A stretch of 64,000 nucleotides of DNA from a virus, in IMG/VR virus record IMGVR_UViG_3300006310_000773; one strand, written 5' to 3'. How positions within the stretch are numbered: the first letter of the stretch is position 1; every line of letters starts with the position of its first letter. Positions 37,531 to 54,032 of this stretch are shown in pieces. Position numbers and translations under genes: made by a program. The notes beneath the pieces were generated by a model. That model was not told where the DNA came from and searched no databases. It saw only the letters and a list, made by a program, of their open reading frames with translations.

Positions 37531-39165
37531 TTAAATTTCGGAATTCCAATAGAGTCCTGATTTATATTCTTTCCAAACATGATAATCATCTTCAGCCACT
37601 ACCTCAGATTTGCCATCATTAAAAAAGCCCAATGGTAATGAATCTTCATCATTCATTCTTTCTTGTTGTTCTAATAATTTTTTTCTAATATCAGAATCAG
37701 TAATTTCTTTAAAATATCTTTGATTCACTAACCATCCAAATAAAACTAAAGTCATGACCAAATCATCATGATATCCTTCCTCAGCCTGAAAACTGGGTCC
37801 TTTTTCAGCAAAAGTCATCAACTCTGAAATGATATCAAAATCCTCAATTATTAAATGATCCTTCTCAATTAATTCTTTTATAGTTGTACAACCGGTTCTT
37901 TTAACATGTTTTGATGTAATTAAACCAATTCTAGAATTTTTCTTAAATCCACCACTAACTTCTTGACCACCTTTATTTGGAGAAGTGAGAATAGTGTTCT
38001 CATATTCTAAATCATAATACAATATATCTCCTACCTGCATACCATTTCCATTAGTTTCGACTAAACACCAAGACTTATTATATTGTGTAGATATTTGTTC
38101 AATTATATTTGGAAAAATAATTGGAGATATTTCATTGTTTCTATATTTTGCAACAACTTTATATGGTATTTCTGTAACATCAATTATTGTAAATGTGGAA
38201 TAATCTTGACCAACGCCTGACGCTGTGTCTACAAGAGTACAATAAGCATGACCTTTTTGTGGTTCAACATAAACATCCAATTCTTGTTGTTTTCTAATTG
38301 GTGGCTTATAAGGCATATTTCTTAATTTGGCAGGTTCAATCAAAGTATTTGTAGACCCTAAAAATTCACACTCAAATTCTTGTCTCCATTGTCTTTCACT
38401 TGTATTTCGAATAGTTTCTTGTTTCCAAGCATCATCTCTACCTGGAACATCACTCCAATTTACAGAAAATGGAACATAAGTATTTCTCCCCTCTTCTGCA
38501 TCAATCCACATTTTATAAAATTTATTCATTCCATATGGTGTTGATACAATGAAAACTTTTGTAGTATTTCCAGAAGAAATTGTAGGATAAACAGAGTTAA
38601 AAAATTCATCCGCTAAAGATGGTGGATCTACATGAGCAAACTCATCAAGGAAAATGATATTAAAAGATGAACCCCTAACCGCTGAAGAGGATGTTGCTGC
38701 AGCGAGAATTTTACTACCATTTTCTAATTCAACATTACCTTTATTCCAAACAGTAACTCCTTGTTGTAGCCATCTCGGTAAATGTTCAAAAGACATCTGC
38801 ATTCTGCTCAAAAGTTCTCTCGCAGTATTACCTTTATTAGCGAGAATAGCAACTGCAACATTCTCATTAAAAAGAATATAATGTAAAAGATAAGATACAA
38901 TTGTTGTTGATTTACCAGATTGTCTAGGTAGTTTTGAAATTACAAATCTATTATTATGAAAAATTTCGACCATCTCTTCTTGATAATCGTATAATTTAAA
39001 AGGAACTAAGCCATGATCAACATGAACAATCTGAACATAATTTTCTATGAAATGTTTTGGGTCAGTGGCACATTTAACAAGTTCCTTTACTTGATCAGGA
39101 GAAAATTCTAATTGTACGTTTGAGTTTTTTAAATTTGGGTTACCAAGATAATGCTGTGCGCCCAT
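37531..39165 (-). CDS. g17: Terminase large subunit gp17
   Basis: PRQSGKST, IFLDEFAH, HDDLVM. Confidence 0.97.
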   Translation of the reverse strand: MGAQHYLGNPNLKNSNVQLEFSPDQVKELVKCATDPKHFIENYVQIVHVDHGLVPFKLYDYQEEMVEIFHNNRFVISKLPRQSGKSTTIVSYLLHYILFNENVAVAILANKGNTARELLSRMQMSFEHLPRWLQQGVTVWNKGNVELENGSKILAAATSSSAVRGSSFNIIFLDEFAHVDPPSLADEFFNSVYPTISSGNTTKVFIVSTPYGMNKFYKMWIDAEEGRNTYVPFSVNWSDVPGRDDAWKQETIRNTSERQWRQEFECEFLGSTNTLIEPAKLRNMPYKPPIRKQQELDVYVEPQKGHAYCTLVDTASGVGQDYSTFTIIDVTEIPYKVVAKYRNNEISPIIFPNIIEQISTQYNKSWCLVETNGNGMQVGDILYYDLEYENTILTSPNKGGQEVSGGFKKNSRIGLITSKHVKRTGCTTIKELIEKDHLIIEDFDIISELMTFAEKGPSFQAEEGYHDDLVMTLVLFGWLVNQRYFKEITDSDIRKKLLEQQERMNDEDSLPLGFFNDGKSEVVAEDDYHVWKEYKSGLYWNSEI

Positions 39166-39389
39166 TAGTCTTTTGCATAGGATTCATAATTAAGTTCTTT
39201 TTCTTTTAGAGCGATCAAACTATGAATATCATTTTTCATATCTTTTATATCCACTTGTATTGTTTTTACTCGTTCTGTTAATACAGCGATAGATGTCTCA
39301 TGAGAAATTATTCCTGATGTCATCCATATGACCAACGCTAATATCGAGGACAGAAACGCCGCTTCAACTTTTGGCCAATGATTAAACAT
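39165..39389 (-). CDS. Small membrane-anchored coiled-coil protein
   Basis: N-terminal hydrophobic helix followed by a coiled coil. Confidence 0.55.
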   Translation of the reverse strand: MFNHWPKVEAAFLSSILALVIWMTSGIISHETSIAVLTERVKTIQVDIKDMKNDIHSLIALKEKELNYESYAKD

Positions 39390-39391
39390 TA

Positions 39392-39685
39392 TTAACTATC
39401 TCTTGAGATTCCAGGAGCCGCATTGTATGCAACTGCTGTTAATGATGCTGTTCCGCCCGCCGAAGCGATTGTATCCAGTGGAGCTTTTCTCACTAACAAC
39501 GCAAAATGTGGTGGTACAGATAGTGTTCCGCTATTTCCAGAACCATTAGTTACAGAACCATCTAAAGTTAAAACTACTGCGGTGGTTGCGTGAGAGTTCG
39601 CGCACCATACCAGAGTAGCAGTACCCATAGTGGTCGCTGATACTGTTCCATCAGATTTTACACCTTTTACACTTATCGCTTCCAT
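39392..39685 (-). CDS. Hypothetical, probably virion-associated, protein
   Basis: Ala/Thr/Gly-rich; SD AAGGA; late promoter upstream. Confidence 0.55.
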   Translation of the reverse strand: MEAISVKGVKSDGTVSATTMGTATLVWCANSHATTAVVLTLDGSVTNGSGNSGTLSVPPHFALLVRKAPLDTIASAGGTASLTAVAYNAAPGISRDS

Positions 39686-39721
39686 ATTTCCTTTAAATTA
39701 ATTTCATTTTTCACTTACATA

Positions 39722-39729
39722 TATTTATA
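39722..39729 (-). promoter_or_regulatory. T4-type late promoter
   Basis: TATAAATA. Confidence 0.6.
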
Positions 39730-41133
39730 TTATACAGTTATCCAACCTCGTGCCACATTATAATATACTAGCTCTTTGGCCTGTCCATTTGTACTCATGA
39801 CAAAATTACTCGTTGCTCCATCAATTTTATGATTATTTCTATTGATGGTAATATTATTTGATGCAGCATTTTGAGATGCATCAACAATTCTTATATGATC
39901 TCCCATTACTCCTGTTTGTGGTAAAGTTACTATCAAAGATGAAGTGGAAACATCACACAATAACCAATCTCCCGCACTTGCAGTTCTAGCACCATCTATT
40001 TCCATCCAAATACCAATATCACTTGTATAAACTGGTGTTCTTTGATCATCTGCTCCAGGACCAACAGCACCACCCATACCTGCATGGTTTGCACAATAAA
40101 TGTAAATAATATCGGGAGTATCCCAAGCTGTGGTAATATTTACTCTTGCATTGGCAGACCCCGCTGTTCCAACATGTTCAACTCCTGTTGACAATGCTGT
40201 TCCGCCTGTGTGTGTTCCATCTGGAGATGCTGAAAAATTTAATATATGACCTGAATTTGAACCAGCACTTACATCAAAACGATATACCATTCCTTTTTGT
40301 AAACGAATAGTGGGTCTAATGTGTGTGGACGTTTTCATTTTTTGTCCATCCAACTCAAAAACATTTTGAGATGAACTTCCATCATCTGCGACAGTTACTA
40401 CAATTTGTGATGTGATATTATTATCTACATATGCTTTAACTGATTGTTGTGTTACCAATGCGGTCGCAGAATTACTTGTTAAATCATCCTCATCTAAACA
40501 TGAGTCTATTGAACCAAGTCCTGGTCTCGCTAGGGTTGCAACTCCATTATTAATAACTACTACACCTGTATTGGCTGCGGAAGAAGAACTAAAATCTTTT
40601 CCGGTTCCACCAAACATTGTACCAACTGGTGTAGATTGCCAGGTTCCAGCGACTATAGCACCCAAAGTTATAAGATTAGTTGATCCCACCTCTGGTGACA
40701 ATCCTGCAGTTCCAGGTGCAGCACTTGTCCAATTGCCGGTATTGTAATATATAATATCGCCTTGAGTGGCTGATGGGGAAGTTACGTCTGCTATGGAACT
40801 AAGATTAACTGAAGCAACATGTGCTACAGTTGCCATTGTGGAAGTATTCGCTTTTATTGCTATTGTATCTGTTGCTTGGGCTTCACAGAATATGGAAGTA
40901 TCCGCCCCCTTAACAGTCATTGTGGCGGCTTGACCAATGGTTTCTGGCGATCCACCATCCGCAGCAACGGTAAAAGATGCAAATGTTCCATCCGCTATTG
41001 ATATTAAATTTCCTACCGTTGCTCTTTTAACTCTTTCTGTATCATCTGATGTATCATAAACAAGTACTGAATCTGCGGTAGATATATCATCCGGATTCAT
41101 TTCTGTCAGTTCACTTATTGGTCTATTTGCCAT
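39730..41133 (-). CDS. Fiber-like virion protein with a cupredoxin-like domain
   Basis: DEDDLTSNSATALVTQQSVKAYVD fiber motif; GH...YCANHAGMG; C-terminal VTLP..GD.IRIVDA..NNITI repeat unit. Confidence 0.7.
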   Translation of the reverse strand: MANRPISELTEMNPDDISTADSVLVYDTSDDTERVKRATVGNLISIADGTFASFTVAADGGSPETIGQAATMTVKGADTSIFCEAQATDTIAIKANTSTMATVAHVASVNLSSIADVTSPSATQGDIIYYNTGNWTSAAPGTAGLSPEVGSTNLITLGAIVAGTWQSTPVGTMFGGTGKDFSSSSAANTGVVVINNGVATLARPGLGSIDSCLDEDDLTSNSATALVTQQSVKAYVDNNITSQIVVTVADDGSSSQNVFELDGQKMKTSTHIRPTIRLQKGMVYRFDVSAGSNSGHILNFSASPDGTHTGGTALSTGVEHVGTAGSANARVNITTAWDTPDIIYIYCANHAGMGGAVGPGADDQRTPVYTSDIGIWMEIDGARTASAGDWLLCDVSTSSLIVTLPQTGVMGDHIRIVDASQNAASNNITINRNNHKIDGATSNFVMSTNGQAKELVYYNVARGWITV

Positions 41134-41735
41134 TACATTCGCCTTGAAGAATAAAAAATATGTCTATCTATTGTTACAGTTTTTATTTTTGTAGTAGTCC
41201 ATCTCGGAGCACTAATATAATCTGCATGATAAAATGTAGCTCCGTCAGTTATATCAACCAAATCATCTGTTTCTAATAAAAATTTTGCCAATTCTACAGA
41301 ATTTTCCCAAAGTTTTCCTCGAAACGGTCTGTCATGTTTACCATCACAATACCAACTGAATTGGCATCTATCTCTAACTGGAAATCCACTTTTATAATGT
41401 TTTCCTTCATATATTACATCACATACTGTATTTGGAAAACTTATACTATCTTTTCTATTTAGTACCACTTGTCCGACGGCGATTTTGCCTGCGGTGGATT
41501 CTGTTGAAGCTTCAAAATATATATTTTTAGACATACATTCCAATTCTATAGGATCTACTTGGGCCACATTTAGTTGAAAATTTTCCTTTGATATCATCAA
41601 CATTGGAGGCATTGCGTCTGTATGAGCGCGTTTAATGGAAAATGCTTCTGGATTCCAATATTGATTAAGAGAATTTCCTCCTATACTAAATGGTAAAAAT
41701 ATTAATATAGTAAAAAATATAAGTATTCGTAGCAT
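41133..41735 (-). CDS. Cell wall hydrolase (SleB/Hydrolase_2)
   Basis: CMSKNIYFEA, VGQVVLNR, CQFSWYCDG, GATFYHA, IDRHIFY; N-terminal signal/TM. Confidence 0.9.
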   Translation of the reverse strand: MLRILIFFTILIFLPFSIGGNSLNQYWNPEAFSIKRAHTDAMPPMLMISKENFQLNVAQVDPIELECMSKNIYFEASTESTAGKIAVGQVVLNRKDSISFPNTVCDVIYEGKHYKSGFPVRDRCQFSWYCDGKHDRPFRGKLWENSVELAKFLLETDDLVDITDGATFYHADYISAPRWTTTKIKTVTIDRHIFYSSRRM

Positions 41736-41879
41736 GTTACCTCATGTATTGGGTTATAGGGTGCCCACCGTTAATAAAATTTAATTGGATTTTTGCGAAG
41801 CGCATGGCTTCATTTGGTATGTATTCATGATAGGCAATTTTAAAACCTTTCTTAAAGAGTGTAGTATTATTTAGGTACA

Positions 41880-42428
41880 CTAAACGGCTTCAGCCCTTGT
41901 AACTTCAAGAATCCTATCAATTTGTGCCTGTAATTTACCCGTCCTATTAGGCCAATATATATACTCTTTGCTTGGGTTTTTCATAAGATTTTTCAAAAGT
42001 GGAATAATCATTTTTTCCATTTTTTCCATCCTATCTTTTAATTGTCTATCAATTTCTACTTTTCTCTCTTCTACTTCATCTATAACTGCTCGAATACTAG
42101 AACCTTGTTCCGTAACTGCAGATACTAATTCTTGTGATTGCATTGTGAGAATCTTGTCTACTTTTTCTTCAACTCGATCCCATTGATCTGAATTTAAATT
42201 CCAATCATCGCCACCACTATCTTTATCTACTAGTGATCCCAATGCATCTATTTTTTTAATAATAGATTTTACATCATCTGTTAAATCTTTACTAACCGCG
42301 GTTGCAGCCTGAGTAGAAATTTCTTTTGTTCTTTCTTCAGCGGAAGCTTGAGTTCCTTCAACCTCTTCTGCTCCACTAAAACTAAATCCAAAATCAAAAT
42401 CATCATCCCATACTTCTTCTTCTGCCAT
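41880..42428 (-). CDS. Conserved T4-like phage hypothetical protein
   Basis: DDFDFGFS N-terminus; IIPLLKNLMKNPSKEYIYWPNR C-terminus. Confidence 0.65.
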   Translation of the reverse strand: MAEEEVWDDDFDFGFSFSGAEEVEGTQASAEERTKEISTQAATAVSKDLTDDVKSIIKKIDALGSLVDKDSGGDDWNLNSDQWDRVEEKVDKILTMQSQELVSAVTEQGSSIRAVIDEVEERKVEIDRQLKDRMEKMEKMIIPLLKNLMKNPSKEYIYWPNRTGKLQAQIDRILEVTRAEAV

Positions 42429-43624
42429 TATTTGAATCCTATCGCTTTAAGTTGTTTAATTGTATTTGCTGCACTGGTATGATGTATTCCTATTCCTCCC
42501 GCTTTTCTAAATTCTGCAATATTTTGTTCATGATCATCAATCAGAATATTGGGTCTTCTATCTCTACCATCTTTAGCAAATTGTTTTTTATCACGTCTTG
42601 AAACTGCTCTCATACTATTTTTTTCAACATTAAAATGTTTTAGCATCCATTTTGTCTTATCAGCTCCCGCCCTATCAGCGATTTTTCCCCTTTTATGTGT
42701 TGGTATTGCTGTAAGCATAAAGGGATTGAGTTTACCAATAAAATTCCAAAGTCGTTTCGCATCTTTCATTGGTGGTAATTTATAGAAAAAATCGTCTGGT
42801 AATTCCTCCCAACGCTCATCTTTAAACTTTCCACCAATCATTTCCTTAACTCCCGCATCAAAATCCGCTACAACTCCATCCATATCACAATAAATTTGAG
42901 GATTATCAAATTCATCTAATTCAAAATATTCTTTAAAAGTTTGAGATTTTTTTAATTTCTTTTCCCTTTCAATCCATTTTTTAGCTTTATAATTTTCTAC
43001 AGGTTTCTGTATTATTTTTTTTAATATTTTATAAACACTTCTAAATGGATCACGTGCTTCAGTTTCAGTATTATTATCAACAATTATAAATTTATCAGCA
43101 CCAAAATATTCTTGAAATTTTCCTATATTTGACTGAACATTTTCCCAACTCTTTTTTACTATGTCATCTCTTAATTTTCTAGGTCTTCGACTATTTCTTT
43201 TTAAAGCGACATCTAATGATGTATTAACAAATATCATCATTGTATCATAACCCAACCCCCGCAATCCTTCTGATGCTGATTGAAGTCTGTCAAATTTATG
43301 GCCTGTGCCATCTACAATTAAACCTAATCTTCCGTCCATCCATTGTTTCATTCTCATTTTTGTAAGGGATTTTGCCTTATCTCTAATCACTTGAGATTTC
43401 TCGAAATCCTTTTCTGTATATTTCGTGAAGTCTGTTCCCAATCCAGAAGATGTTAATTTTAATTCATATATTTCATCTGAATTCACAATCTTCATTCCTA
43501 GTCCAGCTGTTGAATGACCGGCAACCCACGACTTTCCAGAACCAGGACCTCCTGCCATGAAAACTGCTTTAAAAATTGAAGGATCATACATTCCTTCAAT
43601 TAAGAATTCATTAAATTGCTTCAT
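42428..43624 (-). CDS. P-loop kinase (zeta/AAA_33-like) fused to a HAD 5'-nucleotidase
   Basis: GGPGSGKS, LIVDGTG; DMDGVVADF, LIDD; likely start MKQFNEFLIE at 43624. Confidence 0.8.
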   Translation of the reverse strand: MKQFNEFLIEGMYDPSIFKAVFMAGGPGSGKSWVAGHSTAGLGMKIVNSDEIYELKLTSSGLGTDFTKYTEKDFEKSQVIRDKAKSLTKMRMKQWMDGRLGLIVDGTGHKFDRLQSASEGLRGLGYDTMMIFVNTSLDVALKRNSRRPRKLRDDIVKKSWENVQSNIGKFQEYFGADKFIIVDNNTETEARDPFRSVYKILKKIIQKPVENYKAKKWIEREKKLKKSQTFKEYFELDEFDNPQIYCDMDGVVADFDAGVKEMIGGKFKDERWEELPDDFFYKLPPMKDAKRLWNFIGKLNPFMLTAIPTHKRGKIADRAGADKTKWMLKHFNVEKNSMRAVSRRDKKQFAKDGRDRRPNILIDDHEQNIAEFRKAGGIGIHHTSAANTIKQLKAIGFK

Positions 43625-44219
43625 TCGGCTTTCCTTCAAAGATTGTAAGCCATTGTTCACCATGTAATTTATTATAATACATGCTTGTTTCTAATTTTTC
43701 TTCCATAACAAAAGATTCCTCTTTCATTTTTAATAGAAACTTTTTATCTCTGTGTGAGCCTTTATGTAATTTTGAGAATAAATCTTGAAATTGGTTTCCT
43801 CTATTATCAACAGAAATACTTTTGCCCCCATGATTAAAATTTGCATGAACTTTACCATGAGAATTTCCTGGAGAAGTATTTGTTCCTAAAAGTGAAAAAT
43901 CATCTTTCTCTTTGTGGATTACTGAATGTTGATCATATTTTTTTCCTAAACCCATCATGTGTTTTCTTTCAATATTAGGAATAAGAAGAGATTTTTCTTT
44001 AACAAATCCTCCCTCTTCTTTATAACCACCTCTCATTTCAATATATCCATGTCCAAGTTTTCGAACATGATTTTTTAAATCAGAAAAGCGTTTTTCATTC
44101 TCTTCAGGTGAATGTTCCTGCCTATGTGGTGATATTAAACCAAACTTAGGAGTTTTATTCACATGATGCATAACTCTCGATAAACTAGATTCTACTAAAT
44201 GATTCTTAAATGTTTTCAT
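43611..44219 (-). CDS. Hypothetical protein with capsid-targeting-like N-terminus
   Basis: MKTFKNHLVESSLSR; GGYKE..EKS..GKKYDQHSV pattern. Confidence 0.65.
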   Translation of the reverse strand: MKTFKNHLVESSLSRVMHHVNKTPKFGLISPHRQEHSPEENEKRFSDLKNHVRKLGHGYIEMRGGYKEEGGFVKEKSLLIPNIERKHMMGLGKKYDQHSVIHKEKDDFSLLGTNTSPGNSHGKVHANFNHGGKSISVDNRGNQFQDLFSKLHKGSHRDKKFLLKMKEESFVMEEKLETSMYYNKLHGEQWLTIFEGKPNEAI

Positions 44220-44256
44220 TTATATATCCTTATTAAATTTTATTTCAGTTACATAT

Positions 44257-44286
44257 ATCATACCACGAAACTAGGAAAATTGTCAA
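44257..44286 (-). promoter_or_regulatory. Sigma70-like promoter
   Basis: TTGACA-18-TATGAT. Confidence 0.55.
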
Positions 44287-44300
44287 GTTTTAAATATTTA

Positions 44301-44981
44301 TTAATTCCCACCATTCCTACATTGTATTGTTCCTTGACACGCCAAATGTTTCATTCCTTCCAACAAGAACAGCATTTCATCAATAAATGCATCAAGCCCT
44401 CTTATTAGGTACGGATAGATAAATTCTCCAACCGGCCCTCGTAATAAGAATACTAAAACTGCTCCCACCATTCCCCAAAGGAAACTCATGTATGACCACT
44501 TGAGAAATTTGTATTTACTGAGAGCAAGAACTTTTCCTTGTCCGTATATGTCTCCCGCAAGTGCATCATATACGATATCATCTGTCATCAATTTTTCTGC
44601 GTAATCTTCTTTATATTCTTCAATATCTATATGAGCAAAATGACCAAAAAATAAAGGATTAAAATGCGGAGATGATCTGTCTATATCTCCATGTCTGTCT
44701 TTTGGATAATCCGTCTTTGGTATAATAGCAAATATCGCAAACAATAATGAGAAGAAACTGCCCGTTGCAAATGTTAGTAGAGGCCATTTCATCACCTCAT
44801 TGTCCAGGTTTGCTATCGTTATAGAAAATACAATAGATGCAACAGTAATCATTATATTAGCTTTTGCATCTGCCATCAACCCCAATCTCATTTGATTACC
44901 GTGATTGAGGCGGAGAATATTATCTACTGCAGTACGATCTTCAGGTACTTTTGAAAATTGATTAATTTCTTCTTTTTCCAC
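44301..44981 (-). CDS. Pycsar transmembrane effector-like protein (PycTM/DUF5706)
   Basis: MADAKANIMIT, two TMs ending AIIP, NPLFFGHF, DIYGQGKVLALSKYKFLKWSY, third TM. Confidence 0.82.
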   Translation of the reverse strand: MEKEEINQFSKVPEDRTAVDNILRLNHGNQMRLGLMADAKANIMITVASIVFSITIANLDNEVMKWPLLTFATGSFFSLLFAIFAIIPKTDYPKDRHGDIDRSSPHFNPLFFGHFAHIDIEEYKEDYAEKLMTDDIVYDALAGDIYGQGKVLALSKYKFLKWSYMSFLWGMVGAVLVFLLRGPVGEFIYPYLIRGLDAFIDEMLFLLEGMKHLACQGTIQCRNGGN

Positions 44982-44990
44982 ATCATGCCC

Positions 44991-46106
44991 CTATTTCAAT
45001 GGTGGGGCATATAATAATCCTCCATGATTGTATAATTTATTCAGACCACGTTCTAATCCTATAGGTGTATCCGGCCCCACATTACGTTCATATATTTCTT
45101 TGTAATTTCCAATCAATTTAATAACGTTATATGACCAAGATGCCTCTAGTCCAAGTTTAGCTCCAAGATGGGGATGATCTTTTCCATTTTTTTCACCCAT
45201 AAATCTTTGAATGTTTGGGTCTATGTGATTCTTGAACAAGTCAATGTTCTTTGAATTAATGCCCATCTCTTCTGCAATAAACAAAACATATACTGTCCAT
45301 CGAACTATGTCTGTCCATTTCTGATCTCCATACTTGACAACTGGCCCCAATGGTTCCTTTGAGATAATCTCTGGAAGTATCATGTGACGGGCAGGGTCAT
45401 CAAAACTTAATCTATTCGATGCAAGACCAGACCTATCCGTACCATACATATCACAGTCACCCCTTTTGTATACGTTCTTTGTTTTTTCGTTAGGGGGTAC
45501 TGCGACAGGGATATAGTTTATTCCATGTAACTCAAAAAAGTCTGCAATGTTCTTTGCAGCTGTTCCACTACCACTAAAACATATCCTTGCACCTTCCATC
45601 TGTTTTGCAGAAGATACTCCAAGAGTTTTTCTTACAATGAATCCTTGACCATCGTAATAGGTTGTAGGTAGGAATTCTAGTTTCTTTGCAACATTCCTTG
45701 TATAAGTAAATGTGGTTGCAGCAGAAAGAATATCTATAGAACCATCTATTAAGAATTCAAATCGGGTCTTACCATTGACTATAGTAAATTCGATTGCATC
45801 TGCATCACCGAATATTGCAGCTGCAACTGCACGACATATATCAACATCAAAACCTTCCCACCTATCACCATCTTCATTATTCCATATTTCCTGAGAGAAG
45901 CCGGGAAACTCATCATTGGTTCCACAAATGACATATCCTCTTTTCTTCACTCGTTCAAATGTTGAATTATACGTTGGAACATATTCTGATTTTGGTGCAC
46001 CAACTCCAAGTTTTTCTTTCATTGGATCTTGGCCCTCAGCAGGAGACAATGCCATCATCCAAAATACCCAAATTAAAGATACAACAAGTTTACCTACCAT
46101 TATCAT
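44991..46106 (-). CDS. aapJ: General L-amino-acid ABC transporter substrate-binding protein (AapJ/BztA-like)
   Basis: Signal peptide; GFDVDICRAVAAAIFGD, YYDGQGF, PEIISKEPLGP, GNYKEIYERNVG, GGLLYAPP. Confidence 0.9.
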   Translation of the reverse strand: MIMVGKLVVSLIWVFWMMALSPAEGQDPMKEKLGVGAPKSEYVPTYNSTFERVKKRGYVICGTNDEFPGFSQEIWNNEDGDRWEGFDVDICRAVAAAIFGDADAIEFTIVNGKTRFEFLIDGSIDILSAATTFTYTRNVAKKLEFLPTTYYDGQGFIVRKTLGVSSAKQMEGARICFSGSGTAAKNIADFFELHGINYIPVAVPPNEKTKNVYKRGDCDMYGTDRSGLASNRLSFDDPARHMILPEIISKEPLGPVVKYGDQKWTDIVRWTVYVLFIAEEMGINSKNIDLFKNHIDPNIQRFMGEKNGKDHPHLGAKLGLEASWSYNVIKLIGNYKEIYERNVGPDTPIGLERGLNKLYNHGGLLYAPPLK

Positions 46107-46573
46107 TGCAATGCCCGATATACTTCTAACAATTCTTCATCTGCGATCGGGGCGGTCATAGTATAATATCTCTGGTGGCCAACCGACATGAATGCTTTAA
46201 TGTCAGAAAAACTTGGATATTTCATTAAGAGATTATGAAGAAGATAATCTGGACTCAAGTGGCACGATGCACATTGATTATCCTTTGCAAATACTCTGGT
46301 TGATTTCTTGAATCGTTCAGATTGAACTAATACAGAGTTGAGATCCTTTTCCATCCATGTAACTTTTTCTTCTATATCTGGAATAACCAAAAAGGTTAAG
46401 TATATAAGAAGTGCAATAATAACATAGATAAATGATTTACTCGCAACTATTTGGTCTTTAGCAGAAAGTTCCATTTGTTGAACTTCATCTACTTTTTTAT
46501 CTATTTCTTCAATATCATGTTGTAGTATTTTTTGATCTTTTCCATTTGCAACAATTTTTTCTTTTTCAGCCAT
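46103..46573 (-). CDS. Membrane-anchored c-type cytochrome-like protein
   Basis: One TM, then CASCH (CxxCH) and a C-terminal M..PIADEEL.EVY class-I-like helix. Confidence 0.6.
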   Translation of the reverse strand: MAEKEKIVANGKDQKILQHDIEEIDKKVDEVQQMELSAKDQIVASKSFIYVIIALLIYLTFLVIPDIEEKVTWMEKDLNSVLVQSERFKKSTRVFAKDNQCASCHLSPDYLLHNLLMKYPSFSDIKAFMSVGHQRYYTMTAPIADEELLEVYRALQ

Positions 46574-46580
46574 AATTACC

Positions 46581-46925
46581 TCACTTCTTTCCTGCTTCGT
46601 TTAACTTCTTGGTGATTTGCTGTTGAAACCATTTGAGAACAATCGGTATGCTCACATTAGATGTCAATCCAAAAAGATAACCGATGGGATAACGATAACT
46701 TTCATAGGCCGCAAGTTGTGGAACATTTGTAAATACAATAGAAATCAACAAATATCCAGTTGCTGACATTCCCATATTGATAACTAAATCAAGTAAAATC
46801 AACCATCCATGACCGTTATACTTATCCTTATTATCCTGTCTGTAATTAAACAGAAATATCCAAAATGATGAAAATAATACCAATCCAAGCATCATCATTT
46901 CAGAAGTGTTAAATAAATCAATCAT
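46581..46925 (-). CDS. Three-TM membrane protein (holin-like)
   Basis: Three hydrophobic segments and a basic C-terminal tail. Confidence 0.55.
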   Translation of the reverse strand: MIDLFNTSEMMMLGLVLFSSFWIFLFNYRQDNKDKYNGHGWLILLDLVINMGMSATGYLLISIVFTNVPQLAAYESYRYPIGYLFGLTSNVSIPIVLKWFQQQITKKLNEAGKK

Positions 46926-46937
46926 ATTATGTTACCT

Positions 46938-47108
46938 TTATTTTCCTTCAATTCTATTAAAAAATTCTATAGATTTTATAAGTTGTTCAATCTGATCTGT
47001 ATGTGACAGCGATTGATATATAAGTAATCCAAATGTGAATAGAACTATAAACCATAAACATGTGAATGATATTAACACAAGTTTAGATATTAATTCTTCT
47101 TCTTTCAT
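46938..47108 (-). CDS. Small single-TM protein (56 aa, not in the ORF track)
   Basis: MKEEELISKLVLISFTCLWFIVLFTFGLLIYQSLSHTDQIEQLIKSIEFFNRIEGK; ATG overlaps the upstream stop (ATGA). Confidence 0.6.
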   Translation of the reverse strand: MKEEELISKLVLISFTCLWFIVLFTFGLLIYQSLSHTDQIEQLIKSIEFFNRIEGK

Positions 47109-47365
47109 TTATCTTCCAATTGATAATTAAATGCTTTTGTATCCTTTGATGCTGGTTTTGCCATTGGTCTAAGCCAAACATAAATTACCATACTGCTCGT
47201 TGGTGATGGAAATTTAAAGGTTGGTTTACCCTTCCTCATACCAATATCATCAGTTGCATTAACTGGATGTCTTGCGAGTTTGCGTTTCTTGATTTCATCA
47301 CTAACATACTTGTCAAGTTTTCTGTCTAAACGCGTTTCTTTGAGATATTCTTTAAAATTTATCAT
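47105..47365 (-). CDS. Hypothetical protein with capsid-targeting-like N-terminus
   Basis: MINFKEYLKE; coupled to g16. Confidence 0.6.
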   Translation of the reverse strand: MINFKEYLKETRLDRKLDKYVSDEIKKRKLARHPVNATDDIGMRKGKPTFKFPSPTSSMVIYVWLRPMAKPASKDTKAFNYQLEDK

Positions 47366-47766
47366 TTATTCTTCTTATCCTTTATCAACTTTAATAAATC
47401 TGTAGTTGATCCAACATACAAATTATTATTAACTGATGCTGGTCCTGTTGGTGCTTTGTTTGTTAATTCTTTTTTAACTTTTTGAAGATTTACCAATTTT
47501 TCATTAGTTTCTCCAAGATTTTTAATCAGTTGTGAAGCAACTTCAAAATGTCTTGCATGCTCTGTCGATTTTGCTATTTCTAATAATTCATCTAATGCGT
47601 CATGTCCCTTTTCCATTAAATTATAATAATTTTCTCTTGAATATCTATAATCAGTTTTAAAATCCTCATCATCTGAATCTACTGTTAATCTTTTTTCTGT
47701 CTTTTCTGGAAGAGTTGTTATTGGGTCTTCAACCAAAACTTCTTGAACTAAATCTTTTATGTCCAT
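47362..47766 (-). CDS. g16: Terminase small subunit gp16
   Basis: DYRYSRENYY, HARHFEVA, NNNLYVGSTTDL. Confidence 0.92.
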   Translation of the reverse strand: MDIKDLVQEVLVEDPITTLPEKTEKRLTVDSDDEDFKTDYRYSRENYYNLMEKGHDALDELLEIAKSTEHARHFEVASQLIKNLGETNEKLVNLQKVKKELTNKAPTGPASVNNNLYVGSTTDLLKLIKDKKNK

Positions 47767-48662
47767 GATACATCGTCTCCATCAAGTGTTAAACTAAACC
47801 CAAAATCATCATCCGCTGCCGCATCTTCTGGTTTGGGTTTTATTCCAAGAGTTGCGGTTGTTTGTGTTGATGTATTTCCTAATAAATTTACGTCTGCAGA
47901 TTCTAAATAAAGTGATTCAGAATCTTCAGTTATTACGCTATTAATTGTAAATGCTGTACTACTTTCCAAAAGAAATCTATCTAAAGTACCAATATCCGCA
48001 TCCGCGTTTCCAGATACATTCTCAGGAACTATTATCTGAAGAGATATTTCCTTAATTGGTTTTCCACTAGTCGATAATTCTGGATACAGAAACGTTTTCA
48101 TTGTAAATTGCATATCCCATGATAAAGATCTTCTAGTTTCAAAATCTCCGTCATACGCATCTGTATAGTTAACAGAATTTAATATAATAGGACAATCGAC
48201 CGCAATATCCATTAAAGGTACAGTTTTAATAGTTACTGTAAATTCTGGTGTAAAATTTGGTAAAATCTGTTCAACAATTTGTGCAGCATCTTCTGCATTT
48301 TTTGCTAAAATAGCCAAATCAAAAATAAAATTATAAGGAACAGGATTATATTGTGTTCTTAATGTTCCAGATATAGAAGAAGAATTCTTACCAACAGTAT
48401 TCAATTTTCTTGTTCCATCATACATTATCTGACTCATCATAAACCCAATTCTAGGTAAAATTATTGCTGGAGTTCCTGCAAGAGCGGGATTTGCAATTCT
48501 AACCATAAATTTTTGTTTTGGTCCATAAGCAACAGGAATTTTTAAAGTTTCTACTACAACTCCGGATGAATTTACCCTTTTAACTGAAATATCATTAAAT
48601 AATGAACCAAAAGCAACAACCATTTTTCTGATTGTTTGATGATATGTCGATGTTCCAAACAT
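47757..48662 (-). CDS. g15: Tail sheath stabilizer/completion gp15
   Basis: FGSLFNDI, PVAYGPKQKF, QIVEQILPNFTP. Confidence 0.93.
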   Translation of the reverse strand: MFGTSTYHQTIRKMVVAFGSLFNDISVKRVNSSGVVVETLKIPVAYGPKQKFMVRIANPALAGTPAIILPRIGFMMSQIMYDGTRKLNTVGKNSSSISGTLRTQYNPVPYNFIFDLAILAKNAEDAAQIVEQILPNFTPEFTVTIKTVPLMDIAVDCPIILNSVNYTDAYDGDFETRRSLSWDMQFTMKTFLYPELSTSGKPIKEISLQIIVPENVSGNADADIGTLDRFLLESSTAFTINSVITEDSESLYLESADVNLLGNTSTQTTATLGIKPKPEDAAADDDFGFSLTLDGDDVSWT

Positions 48663-49507
48663 TATATGTTACCTTCAGAAAATGGATCTCTATCAGTGAA
48701 ATCAAATATTGAATCACTTTCAGTTTGAATACCTAAATTATTCGCCAGTGGATCTGTTAGAATTACCAGATCATCTGGCACTGCTGTCATAGACCAAGAT
48801 GCGGTACTTGCTACACCCACAACATCATATGCTGTAGTAATAGTACCAACAATATTTCCAACTCTCAAAGTCTTTGTAGTAGGAGCCCAAGAAAGAACTT
48901 TCATCGTAGCGTCTCCATTGCTACAATCTTCTCCTATCGTAAAAGTTCCTTCTCCTGAAGTAAATACCAAGTCCATCGAGTATCCATAATCTGTTTCAAT
49001 ATCGTCGATTGCCGCAATACCAGTATCCATATCCTCATGACTGTACTCAAACGTTTCACAAGTGAGAGTATATATTGGAAGATTCCCCAACTGATAAAAT
49101 ACTTTTTCATGTTCAACAAATCTAACTTCAAATAATTTATCATTTAATGGAAAATATATTAAATCTCCTTCATATGGTCTATCAAGTCTTCCTGGTATTT
49201 CTTCATCTTTCCACCGTCTTTGAGAAACATCTAAAATTACTTGATCTCGTATTTCAAGCCCAAATTGTCCTACCATATCACCTTCACCACTAAATCCATC
49301 AGTTGAATCAATATACATTTCTATTATATGTGCAGCTGAAAATTTAGAAGCGACATCTTCACTATACAAATTATCTACTGCAACTGATGTTCTAGGCAGA
49401 TAACTTATATCTATTCCATGTATTTTAATCGATTCTTCTACCAAATCGTTTAGTAAATTTTGTTCTGGTTGAAAATCAACATTTTGAAAATATGTAGATA
49501 CTGGCAT
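48662..49507 (-). CDS. g14: Neck protein gp14
   Basis: LVEESIKIHG, YLPR, RPYEGDLIYFP, FYQLG. Confidence 0.93.
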   Translation of the reverse strand: MPVSTYFQNVDFQPEQNLLNDLVEESIKIHGIDISYLPRTSVAVDNLYSEDVASKFSAAHIIEMYIDSTDGFSGEGDMVGQFGLEIRDQVILDVSQRRWKDEEIPGRLDRPYEGDLIYFPLNDKLFEVRFVEHEKVFYQLGNLPIYTLTCETFEYSHEDMDTGIAAIDDIETDYGYSMDLVFTSGEGTFTIGEDCSNGDATMKVLSWAPTTKTLRVGNIVGTITTAYDVVGVASTASWSMTAVPDDLVILTDPLANNLGIQTESDSIFDFTDRDPFSEGNI

Positions 49508-51501: not shown

Positions 51502-52594
51502 CTACTGCTTTATAACCTAATCCTTCATTAACAAATCTTACTGCATTTTTTAATGTTGATTCATTTACCGCTTCATACATTCTTTTTATAATAAACTCAG
51601 AGTCTTGTCCAATAAATACCCCATAATTTCCTAATTTTTTTAATCTTTCTTTTTGAAATTCCTCATCGAACCACGTTTTTGTTGCAATTGTTACCATATC
51701 ATGATAATATACACTATCCGTAGTCACAAAAAAACTTTTTTGAATACCATCTCTCCACAATCTCAATAAAACATATGCATCATAAACCTCTCCTTTGGGT
51801 TTAAATCCATGAGTTTGTTCAAATATATAATCGAAACATAATCCTTTAAGTTCAGGATTTGGATCATCTACCCATTGACCTGTTTTATAATTCATTTGAC
51901 AATGATGAAACCATATTTCAAGTTCATTGTTAGATAATGCTTTTTTATATTTTGCATTACCTGTATAATTCTGAAAGGTGTCTCTACTTACATTCAATTC
52001 TCCATTTACAAATGCTACAATCCGCGCTCCTCCACTTTTCATACCTTTAACAATAATTACTCTATCTTTAAAACATTTCATAAATTTATCCATATCATTA
52101 GTCTCTGGACACACCATTAGTCCCGCCGCGAAATGATCTGGTTCTGATCCACCCCCAGGATTAAGTGCGAATTTTTGTTTATGGAATTTTGGATTATAAT
52201 CTATCCTTTTGGGAATAAGCATATTGCCAGGATGAATTAATATTGGTTTATATTTTCTAAAATCATAATTTCCAACATCTTCTAATAATGTTGCCATAGC
52301 ATTTCCACCATGACTAGTCATCATATAATTACCGTATTTCAATTTACTTTCAAATTTTCTTAGAGCATTTTTTCCTCTATTTCCTGGGATATATTTAAAA
52401 TCTATTTGTTCAATATTACCTGATAAATTATTATTCATATGTTTACCCCAAAGCCATGCCCATCTCGAGGTTCCTCCTGGCTTTGGTGAACTAGGAATAA
52501 CTGCGTACATTGTATCAGCATTAACCTGGCTGACCATAACCATTGTACCAAAAACAAACAACATACATAATACTAATTGAATAAATTTAAACAT
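51479..52594 (-). CDS. tctC: Tripartite tricarboxylate transporter substrate-binding protein (TctC/Bug-like, divergent)
   Basis: Signal peptide; PGGTSRWA, PGNRG, NGELNV; coupled to tctA. Confidence 0.65.
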   Translation of the reverse strand: MFKFIQLVLCMLFVFGTMVMVSQVNADTMYAVIPSSPKPGGTSRWAWLWGKHMNNNLSGNIEQIDFKYIPGNRGKNALRKFESKLKYGNYMMTSHGGNAMATLLEDVGNYDFRKYKPILIHPGNMLIPKRIDYNPKFHKQKFALNPGGGSEPDHFAAGLMVCPETNDMDKFMKCFKDRVIIVKGMKSGGARIVAFVNGELNVSRDTFQNYTGNAKYKKALSNNELEIWFHHCQMNYKTGQWVDDPNPELKGLCFDYIFEQTHGFKPKGEVYDAYVLLRLWRDGIQKSFFVTTDSVYYHDMVTIATKTWFDEEFQKERLKKLGNYGVFIGQDSEFIIKRMYEAVNESTLKNAVRFVNEGLGYKAVVKHIHSP

Positions 52595-54032
52595 AATCCA
52601 CCTTTACTTTTTTACTAAAAATGACCATCAATATTGATAACAACATTATTATAATAACGAATGGTCTTATAATTATTTCTTGAAAACTATACAAATCTAT
52701 CAATTGATATGAAAATTGTTCTAATCTTTCACTCAAAATAAATCCCAACAATACCGCTGGCCTGCTAATTTTAAAATGCTTCAGTATAAACCCACAAAAT
52801 GAAAACACAATAAAAAATATTGAATCTTCTAAAATAAATTCATAAAAATTTGAACTTATTATTGCCCACCATGTAACAAGTGCAACAAATGCTATGAAAA
52901 AATATTTATTGATACGAAATATTTTAGATATCGGCCCGGCTAATAATAATCCAAAAATTGTAACTGAAATAGTGCCGACTAGATAACCAATTATTATAGA
53001 ATTTATAAAATTTTTATCCTCTAATATATATAAATCTCCCATAGGAAATCCAATATATTCCCATAATCCCATCGCGATCATTGCCCATGTTGCACCAGGA
53101 ATACCTATGAGAATAGTGGGTATTAATGCTCCTGCCTTGCCGGCATTATTAACTCCTTCTGGTGCGACTATACCTTCTGGCGCGCCCTTACCAAATGGAG
53201 TTGAAAATACCCTTTTCATTTTTGTCGCTATACTATAAGAAATCCATTCTGAACCGCCACCACCATATCCCGGCAATAGTCCATAGAAAAACCCAATTAA
53301 TCCCCCAACAAAACCATGTTTCCATAAACGTATTGCATCAATTATACCTTTTTTTATTTGTTTAAAGTCACTATTTTCTTTAACAGATTTCATATCAAAT
53401 TTACACAATGTATATAATTCTGGAATACAAAATAATCCTGATGCCAATACTGCAATACCTATACCGTCATAAAGATAATATTCCATTCCAAATGCAAATC
53501 TTGGATTTCCTGTAACATCAGAACCAATTGATCCTAAACCAACACCTATAATTACTGCTAAAATACCTTTTAATGGTTTATTACTTGATAATAAACTTAC
53601 ACTCAAAAAACTAAACAATATAATAACCCACATCTCAGGAACTTTCATATATTGTAAAATATATTCATATAATGGAAGAACAATAAGAAATGGAACAAAC
53701 CAAATAATACCTTGTATACCACTAGTGGTTAATGCTAAACTAATTGCGTAAGAACTTTGTCCTGCTTTGGTGAGTGGGAATCCATCAACCATTGTCGCCG
53801 CAGAAGAATTAGATCCGGGAATTCCAATATAAACTCCTGAAAAACTATCTCCTATTGTGCACGCAACAACCGCTGCCATAGAAAATGCGACAAATTCATA
53901 TGGTATATGTGAAAAATGATTTACAACACTAAACAGCATTATTAATGCTTTGGTGGGCCCTGAAACGGGAATTATGCCTATAAATAATCCATAAAGTGAA
54001 CCCAATATAGTCCACATCAACAATTCAAACAT
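52587..54032 (-). CDS. tctA: Tripartite tricarboxylate transporter permease TctA
   Basis: GIPG..SAATMVDGFPL, GAPEGIVAPEGVNNA, LIPTILIGIPG, LGFILSERLE; multi-TM. Confidence 0.9.
   Translation of the reverse strand: MFELLMWTILGSLYGLFIGIIPVSGPTKALIMLFSVVNHFSHIPYEFVAFSMAAVVACTIGDSFSGVYIGIPGSNSSAATMVDGFPLTKAGQSSYAISLALTTSGIQGIIWFVPFLIVLPLYEYILQYMKVPEMWVIILFSFLSVSLLSSNKPLKGILAVIIGVGLGSIGSDVTGNPRFAFGMEYYLYDGIGIAVLASGLFCIPELYTLCKFDMKSVKENSDFKQIKKGIIDAIRLWKHGFVGGLIGFFYGLLPGYGGGGSEWISYSIATKMKRVFSTPFGKGAPEGIVAPEGVNNAGKAGALIPTILIGIPGATWAMIAMGLWEYIGFPMGDLYILEDKNFINSIIIGYLVGTISVTIFGLLLAGPISKIFRINKYFFIAFVALVTWWAIISSNFYEFILEDSIFFIVFSFCGFILKHFKISRPAVLLGFILSERLEQFSYQLIDLYSFQEIIIRPFVIIIMLLSILMVIFSKKVKVDYV

Follow-up and report, generated by a model that had tools for sequence, protein, structure and literature searches.

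A stretch of 64,000 nucleotides (nt) from the viral record IMGVR_UViG_3300006310_000773, hereafter called the window, carries a compact block of minus-strand genes that encode a small membrane protein (tm114), a membrane-anchored CxxCH protein (cyt156), an amino-acid binding protein of the AapJ/BztA type (aapJ) and a membrane protein of the PycTM family (pycTM). The window is taken from the reverse strand of an 88,952-bp IMG/VR viral contig, for which CheckV estimates a completeness of ~35%. The neck, sheath-stabiliser and terminase genes on it are T4-like and share just ~40-45% identity with their counterparts in cyanomyoviruses and in Pelagibacter phage HTVC008M; the source is therefore an uncultured marine T4-like myovirus. 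As set out below, uncultured T4-like myoviruses of the ocean carry the block as a conserved accessory operon, and it lies within their late neck and packaging cluster (Table 1).

An earlier note, made from the letters of the window, had listed five minus-strand open reading frames (ORFs) at this place, and all five are present and tightly packed. The spacing is 12 nt between tm56 and tm114, 7 nt between tm114 and cyt156 and 9 nt between aapJ and pycTM, and cyt156 and aapJ share 4 nt. Upstream, ATGA overlaps join g16 to an ORF of 86 amino acids (aa) and this ORF to tm56, such that every gap in the chain from g16 through the 86-aa ORF and tm56 to pycTM is an overlap or measures at most 12 nt. 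The block had also been described as less AT-rich than its flanks. This holds (GC content 0.358 vs 0.32 for the window), mainly at third codon positions, where the GC content (GC3) is 0.24-0.33 in the four block genes vs 0.15-0.20 in the flanks. The placement between g16 and g17 likewise stands for the window, but the block does not directly adjoin g17. Given the position of that gene (Table 1), the two are separated by six further genes: a DUF3293/SAM-lyase-like gene, a kinase-nucleotidase fusion, a cell-wall hydrolase gene and three ORFs without a family match.

Table 1. Positions in the window of the block genes and of other features discussed in the text (TM, transmembrane segment)
Feature	Position	Strand	Description
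g17 (TerL)	37531-39165	-	Large terminase subunit; Terminase_6N 3.8e-24, Terminase_6C 1.3e-13; far end of the g16-g17 island
74-aa ORF	39165-39389	-	Directly upstream of g17; one N-terminal TM, charged helical tail, no family match
Hydrolase_2 gene	41133-41735	-	SleB-type cell-wall hydrolase; N-terminal hydrophobic segment
DUF3293/SAM-lyase-like gene and kinase-nucleotidase fusion	42428-44219	-	3' of the sigma-70-like promoter; zeta-toxin/AAA-type kinase fused with NT5C-type nucleotidase
Sigma-70-like promoter (candidate)	44257-44286	-	TTGACA, 18 nt, TATGAT, upstream TG
pycTM	44301-44981	-	226-aa membrane protein, GTG start, 3 TM; PF18967 family
aapJ	44991-46106	-	371-aa secreted AapJ/BztA-type polar amino-acid binding protein; N-terminal signal-like segment
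cyt156	46103-46573	-	156-aa ORF; one TM, then CASCH
tm114	46581-46925	-	114-aa ORF; small membrane protein, first core gene
tm56	46938-47108	-	56-aa ORF; single-TM peptide
g16	47362-47766	-	Small terminase subunit; PF11053 2.6e-07, phrog_445 4.8e-38; upstream anchor of the island
gp15	47757-48662	-	Tail sheath stabiliser (profile matches)
TctA gene	52587-54032	-	Full-length TctA-family large permease of the tripartite tricarboxylate transporter; PF01970 2.6e-81

Proteins encoded by the block

The identities proposed earlier for the AapJ-like and the PycTM/DUF5706-like proteins are borne out by hidden Markov models (HMMs) that score above their cut-offs. For aapJ this is PF00497 (SBP_bac_3; 1.2e-11, 45 bits vs a cut-off of 26.4). 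The more specific model TIGR01096, for Lys/Arg/Orn binding, returns 5e-36 at 124.5 bits, below its threshold of 256.35, and by this measure the protein is a relative of that subfamily and not a member. A full-length match to PDB entry 4z9n (2.3e-83, residues 48-370) is accompanied by ~45% identity to alphaproteobacterial binding proteins encoded in binding protein-permease-permease-ATPase operons. The stretches that aapJ and 4z9n have in common (TT.T..R and C D. Y. T D) show little or no variation across 87 phage sequences, and the linker that follows the signal peptide varies from ~25 to 130 aa. Homologues with at least 78% identity number in the thousands, one cluster at 90% identity holding 584 members, and every context examined was that of a T4-like phage. 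A reading as an XoxJ/MxaJ-type protein, in which a binding-protein-like gene and a cytochrome gene occur together in methanol-dehydrogenase clusters, was dropped, the protein being clearly of the AapJ type.

The product of pycTM matches PF18967 at 1.1e-19 (71.3 bits vs a Pfam cut-off of 27.2) and the PADLOC PycTM models at 2.8e-16 and 1.6e-12; models of CBASS 2TM effectors match it too. It aligns from end to end with 17 stand-alone cellular members of the family at 33-40% identity, and the phage protein keeps the residues that are invariant family-wide (A37, D38, K40, A41, P88, L152, K156 and G170). Several alleles circulate among the phages (about 100-90%, 75-80% and ~54% identity), some of which have a C-terminal tail, and they are reshuffled relative to the neighbouring genes. 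The tail, which is carried by 42 of the 80 unique phage PycTM proteins (44301-44440 in the window), adds 30-45 aa beyond the last TM and ends in C-x5-C; it is missing from the cellular relatives and from the remaining phage alleles and, by topology, should face the periplasm. A second PycTM gene is present in one related contig (L121). The structural model obtained with AlphaFold2 has a predicted local distance difference test score (pLDDT) of 71 and matches no PDB fold at E up to 0.001, and a PDB sequence search with the PycTM profile found no solved structure of the family. Among 1.84 billion representative proteins the same profile retrieved 1681 relatives (E up to 0.001). Those from cells that come nearest to the phage protein are encoded by stand-alone genes (~180 aa) whose surroundings are unremarkable and contain no cyclase gene, and other members carry fused HD or EF-hand domains. 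The family is therefore a general membrane output module, in which an orphan member is not anomalous, and the assertion in the earlier note that PycTM normally needs a PycC cyclase was too strong.

The protein cyt156 consists of a variable cytoplasmic N-terminus, a TM helix (~47-65) that is strikingly conserved in the alignment of homologues, and a conserved periplasmic domain with the CxxCH motif. C100, C103, H104, M128 and H132 are invariant in 36 sequences that range from 59 to 93% identity, and in a divergent clade described below the motif is retained as CAECH. Among these homologues 34 of 36 give weak matches to SoxA/TsdA cytochromes c, the best at 0.0027 and under the Pfam cut-off; beyond its own clusters, the nearest Atlas neighbours of cyt156 are PF00034 cytochromes (0.92), a lead that comes from a language model. 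The protein is thus a probable membrane-anchored mono-haem c-type cytochrome, an assignment that points back to the invariant CxxCH, the family match not being significant; the earlier description as a c-type cytochrome stands as far as the motif and falls short at the family. A profile comparison of the domain with 30 cyanobacterial class I cytochromes (hhalign 58%, E 1e-4) was rejected, as the motif alone explains the score. The AlphaFold2 model is poor (pLDDT 60), and a fold search with it gave only coiled-coil matches to the long helix. Searching PDB sequences with the cyt156 profile gave nothing useful, and tblastn of the domain against plasmids gave noise only. A reading of cyt156 as a spanin was dropped because neither an embedded nor a following lipoprotein gene is present.

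Hydropathy of tm114 indicates two clear TM segments and a weaker, highly conserved third hydrophobic segment, followed by a basic, lysine-rich C-terminus. With a mean column identity of 82% across 23 homologues, it is more conserved than any other gene of the block. It has no match among Pfam, PHROG or NCBIfam models, and the search for holin families in Pfam and PHROG was negative at E up to 1. The nearest Atlas clusters by the language model are holin families (0.86-0.90, with 183-195 features in common), which is a lead only. The protein is therefore holin-like by shape only: the earlier label is upheld by size, topology and the language-model lead, but not by any HMM. Longer, fused forms of tm114 were not found, which is weak evidence, and a complex prediction for cyt156 with tm114 scored 0.00, a value that is uninformative about binding either way. 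The 56-aa peptide tm56, counted as a member of the cassette in the earlier note, does not belong to the conserved unit. It adjoins tm114 only in the lineage of the window (L004 and L085) and lies ~2-4.5 kb upstream of tm114 in five other contigs (L014, L025 and L100-L102).

Linkage and exchange of the block among related phages

Scans of IMG/VR recovered 67 contigs related through PycTM and at least 192 related through AapJ, and the proteins of the window were mapped onto them. The co-occurrence in other marine phage contigs by which the earlier note proposed to judge its cassette is found in more than 100 viral contigs, always in the order three-TM protein, CxxCH protein, AapJ. Where an AapJ locus has room upstream, cyt156 and tm114 are there in the same order (94 of 94), and where there is room downstream PycTM follows in 92 of 94. 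The surroundings vary. In 46 loci tm114 is preceded by g16, in 19 by a gene for a zeta-like kinase and in 14 by another gene; 3' of PycTM lies TerL in 26 loci, after a very short spacer, and varied genes elsewhere. In the related genome G001 (134.5 kb, 100% complete by CheckV) g16 is directly followed by g17, and the block is located ~84 kb away. The block thus occurs in at least three different flanking contexts.

A divergent clade, reached via the CxxCH protein of contig L126, carries counterparts of the first three genes that are 50-72% identical to the window copies, and its AapJ proteins have a longer N-terminal linker. Among its loci with downstream room, PycTM is retained in six, in some of which a lipoprotein-like gene has been inserted ahead of it; five (L155-L159) have no PycTM within 1.8-3.8 kb. 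Because this clade can keep the three genes without PycTM, the invariant core comprises tm114, cyt156 and aapJ, with PycTM as a frequent, exchangeable fourth gene. All informative loci, including those at only 50-60% identity, show the same core order and the same coupling of stop to start codons. In one contig PycTM occurs without an AapJ or CxxCH gene (L036:600-3805, 82% identical). There it is preceded by genes for two small proteins with TM segments, a protein distantly similar to tm114 (hhalign 60%, E 9e-5), an IscA-like protein and IscU, and is followed by those for a short Na/Pi-cotransporter-family protein and an AdoMet decarboxylase.

All four genes of the block are under purifying selection, with ratios of nonsynonymous to synonymous divergence (dN/dS) of 0.10-0.15 (0.10 for tm114, 0.15 for both aapJ and pycTM). 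Median protein identities to the window copies are 94% for tm114, 76% for cyt156, 79% for AapJ and 76% for PycTM, as against 42-49% for gp14-gp16 and 60% for TerL in the flanks. Synonymous divergence from the window copy is 0.7-1.1 in the block vs ~2.2 or saturation in TerL and gp16. Recombination joints fall at the block and inside it. From the block through TerL (>7 kb), contig L002 (IMGVR_UViG_3300006308_000101) is 99-100% identical to the window, yet its gp14-gp16 are only 27-50% identical, and the 86-aa ORF and tm56 are missing from it (compared with window positions 37531-49507); the two phages, alike in other respects, have undergone a swap of the whole neck module, and the joint lies at the block. 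Contig L004 is 100% identical to the window upstream of the block, yet its aapJ is 92% and its pycTM 95% identical. In L126 the neck genes, at 64-73% identity to those of the window, exceed the block, at 53-65%. Taken together, the divergence of the block relative to its flanks, its GC3 and the recombination joints show an old cassette that has been exchanged among diverged phage lineages.

This mobility raises the question of whether the block has any joint function, or whether its members are unrelated accessory genes kept side by side by descent and by recombination of whole blocks between conserved flanks. The g16-g17 island is a hot spot with many unrelated inserts, breakpoints occur at or inside the block (in L002, at 100% identity downstream vs 43-50% upstream, and in L004), and insertions are able to split it, as in L127, L147 and L152. 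However, the order and coupling of the core are universal in the informative loci across at least three contexts, one of them ~84 kb from g16 and g17, and the median pairwise synonymous divergence (dS) of tm114 is 1.46; with synonymous sites so near saturation there has been ample time for rearrangement. Mere co-location is considered very unlikely. The island inserts found in relatives 3' of PycTM (L114-L121) include genes for Lipase_3, isocitrate lyase, an IMPDH-family protein and a MotA/ExbB-like protein. A Bmp-family binding protein in the same island is a second orphan binding protein. The interruption in L127 (L127:3106-4541) consists of two genes that separate the CxxCH gene from aapJ and encode proteins of 320 and 156 aa. 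Pfam has no match for either, and both products start with MK.FK.Y..E, as do several ORFs of the window.

The partners expected of a transporter or of a Pycsar system are missing, as the earlier note had remarked for the window, and this extends to the whole 89-kb record and to G001. No PF00211 (Guanylate_cyc-type) cyclase is found in the 88,952-bp record or in the related genomes G001, G002 and G003, and no BPD_transp_1 (ABC permease) in the record or in G001. The record contains no true ABC ATPase, its lone ABC_tran match being a 28-position P-loop stretch under the cut-off. By comparison, the cellular locus of an AapJ homologue that was examined has all four importer genes. Since no cyclase was found and the nearest cellular PycTM relatives also stand alone, the block is not a Pycsar defence system; nor is it a complete transporter.

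The possibility, raised as a refutation in the earlier note, that the block is a fragment of a host operon is not supported by genomes of cells. A search of one genome per species from 185,579 prokaryote species found no cellular operon with this gene content and returned just four matches (L124-L127), all of them phage contigs that carry the block and had been placed in metagenome-assembled genomes (MAGs). These MAGs are labelled Nitrososphaerales, Chloroflexota and Flavobacteria, and their origin in unrelated phyla points to binning noise. The block in them is a likely case of mis-binning that could mislead inferences of host or gene content there. Among GenBank phage isolates there is no DNA match to the region, no PycTM match and no credible tm114 match, and aapJ has distant SBP_bac_3 matches only. 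No paper describing these block genes in phages was found, and the pelagimyophage survey PMC7029224 does not mention them. A report of a phage-encoded PycTM-family protein was also not found; the papers located treat the family as a bacterial defence effector only.

Genomic setting and possible functions

The best candidate promoter near the block lies on its 3' side, in the 81-nt gap that follows pycTM. This sigma-70-like site agrees with the consensus at 11 of 12 positions and is the top-scoring one between 43500 and 48000; being a consensus match only, it may mark the 3' boundary of the transcription unit of the block. The T4 late-promoter motif TATAAATA is not enriched in the window and has no copy 5' of the block. 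As the block has no promoter of its own, and the spacers to g16 or g17 are too short for one in most relatives, its expression is probably late. Beyond the sigma-70-like site, the kinase half of the kinase-nucleotidase fusion also exists as stand-alone copies, which precede tm114 in 19 relatives. The Hydrolase_2 protein, encoded 2.6 kb 3' of the block and 4.8 kb from tm114, is a candidate endolysin, either secreted or signal-anchored; in G001 the homologous gene is found at 128.1 kb, ~40 kb from the block. No TctC-family binding protein that could accompany the TctA permease was found at E up to 0.001.

The reading preferred here, tentatively and with somewhat less than even confidence, is that of a late-expressed accessory block in which the binding protein feeds a host amino-acid permease and the other proteins act on membrane energetics. 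The block would thereby remodel the inner membrane and periplasm of the host during infection. The AapJ-like protein would be exported, bind amino acids and hand them to a host permease of the AapQMP type, raising the nutrient and energy supply of the infected cell, much as cyanophage PstS does with host PstCA. The anchored haem protein cyt156 and tm114 might support or tap the respiratory chain, and PycTM, like its stand-alone cellular relatives, might act independently of a cyclase as a regulated membrane-conductance protein. An uptake role is favoured because AapJ is clearly of the transport type and because these phages collect uptake and metabolic genes: TctA in the present record, and Bmp, isocitrate lyase, lipase, IMPDH-family, IscA, IscU and Na/Pi-cotransporter genes in its relatives. 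A precedent is the PstS of cyanophage P-SSM2, which is abundant in infected cells, in which host phosphate uptake rises after infection (bioRxiv 10.1101/2021.07.20.453049).

Several observations count against this proposal. Metabolic genes that are useful independently of one another would not be expected to stay strictly linked, as these three do, in a hyperplastic region, and tm114 is left without a clear role. In 46 relatives g16 abuts tm114, leaving no room for a promoter, and the probably late expression suits lysis or exclusion at least equally well. With just ~45% identity to cellular AapJ, the phage gene has had a long history within phages, during which it may have switched its partner or ligand. 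Finally, the cytochrome assignment is unsupported outside the motif. The profile-profile match to cytochromes was dismissed because shuffled cyt156 alignments that keep only CxxCH score as high in 41 of 60 trials, and the cyt156 profile found no cellular homologue in 300 Bacteroidota genomes, its sole match there being a mis-binned phage contig.

Late expression brings in a second explanation, already raised in the earlier note, namely that the block times lysis by permeabilising the membrane. Here tm114 would be a holin of the class I type and PycTM a second depolarising protein, with the CxxCH domain and AapJ as antiholin-like sensors of redox state and amino acids that set the time at which the membrane is breached. 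The size of tm114, its two to three hydrophobic segments, its lysine-rich C-terminus and its closest Atlas clusters all agree with this, as do the lack of a promoter of its own for a block inside late genes, the cell-wall hydrolase gene downstream in the window, and a TM helix in cyt156 that is unusually conserved for a plain anchor. Moreover, a holin T of the T4 type was found in neither G000 nor G001, a distant tm114-like protein lies near PycTM in L036 as well, and disruption of the inner membrane is ascribed to the PycTM family (PMC13712596). On the other hand, tm114 is matched by no holin HMM, the hydrolase in G001 is remote from the block and other small multi-TM ORFs occur in that genome, PycTM is dispensable, and AapJ retains all the stretches that it has in common with transport-type binding proteins. 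Holins are usually fast-evolving proteins, and the strong conservation of tm114 (82%, dN/dS 0.10) is unexpected for one. Lysis timing is regarded as doubtful, though it is the main rival of the uptake reading.

The allelic variety of PycTM could instead point to conflict with the host or with other phages. PycTM might serve as a decoy that either soaks up cCMP/cUMP or poisons host PycTM or 2TM effectors by assembling with them, and the binding protein might occupy a host permease that rival phages need for DNA entry. Variable, recombining alleles are typical of conflict genes, and several alleles of PycTM, with or without the tail, are reshuffled against their neighbours; a second copy is present in L121, and the protein matches models of CBASS 2TM effectors. 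But the family-wide residues and every TM segment are kept, so that PycTM bears no mark of an inactive decoy, and its dN/dS of 0.15 gives no diversifying signal. The invariant three-gene core would also be left unexplained. Superinfection exclusion or counter-defence is for these reasons considered very unlikely.

In a further reading the three core proteins would form one periplasm-facing membrane device, in which a ligand of AapJ or the redox state of the haem acts through cyt156 and tm114 on membrane conductance. PycTM would be its exchangeable output, and the phage would time lysis or exclusion according to the periplasmic amino-acid or redox state, for example by sensing solutes freed when neighbouring cells lyse. 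Such a device would be analogous to ligand-gated channels that are based on a binding protein of the transport type, but with its parts unfused. It is judged unlikely. The related proposal of the earlier note, in which periplasmic sensing drives a membrane effector, finds no direct support, PycTM being absent from L155-L159 and occurring alone in L036. An orphan binding protein that uses a host transporter, as in the preferred uptake reading, is simpler and fits at least equally well.

Comparison with known systems

The block is widespread and undescribed, and its function is inferred. Orphan binding proteins of phages have hitherto been known mainly through cyanophage PstS; here one of amino-acid type is abundant in ocean metagenomes. 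Should the binding protein supply host transporters, the flux of amino acids in the ocean may be reshaped by phages that infect heterotrophic bacterioplankton, and if the lysis-timing reading were true the block would represent a novel means by which a virus senses its surroundings. Proteins of PF18967 are often cyclase-independent, which matters for the counts of 'Pycsar' given by defence finders.

The resemblance to cyanophage PstS is that a T4-like marine phage encodes the binding component only, without permease or ATPase, as a full-length homologue of the host type. The two differ in ligand class, which for the block would be amino acids instead of phosphate, with docking on a host permease assumed by analogy, and in that the phage aapJ is locked to two membrane proteins within a late packaging operon. 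With cellular AapJ/BztA of Alphaproteobacteria (4z9n) the phage protein shares a full-length match (2e-83, ~45% identity), the long-form architecture and the N-terminal signal. It departs from them in having no permease or ATPase partners, in its variable ~25-130-aa linker and in scoring below the TIGR01096 cut-off.

Similar comparisons can be drawn for the membrane proteins. The phage PycTM keeps the MAD.KAN, NPLFFGHF and KY..LR.SY stretches of the Pycsar effector (PF18967), but is encoded without PycC in a phage of lytic type, and half of its alleles have the C-x5-C tail. Alphaproteobacteria possess membrane-anchored class I cytochromes c, known as CycM and cytochrome c_y. The N-terminal anchor, linker and small C-terminal single-CxxCH domain of cyt156 recall their layout; past the motif, however, there is no significant sequence or profile similarity to them, and the haem of cyt156 is putative. 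Finally, tm114 resembles class I holins of the lambda S type in its length of ~110 aa, its hydrophobic segments, its basic C-terminus and its likely late expression, and differs from them in matching no HMM, in being unusually conserved and in not lying beside an endolysin gene in G001.

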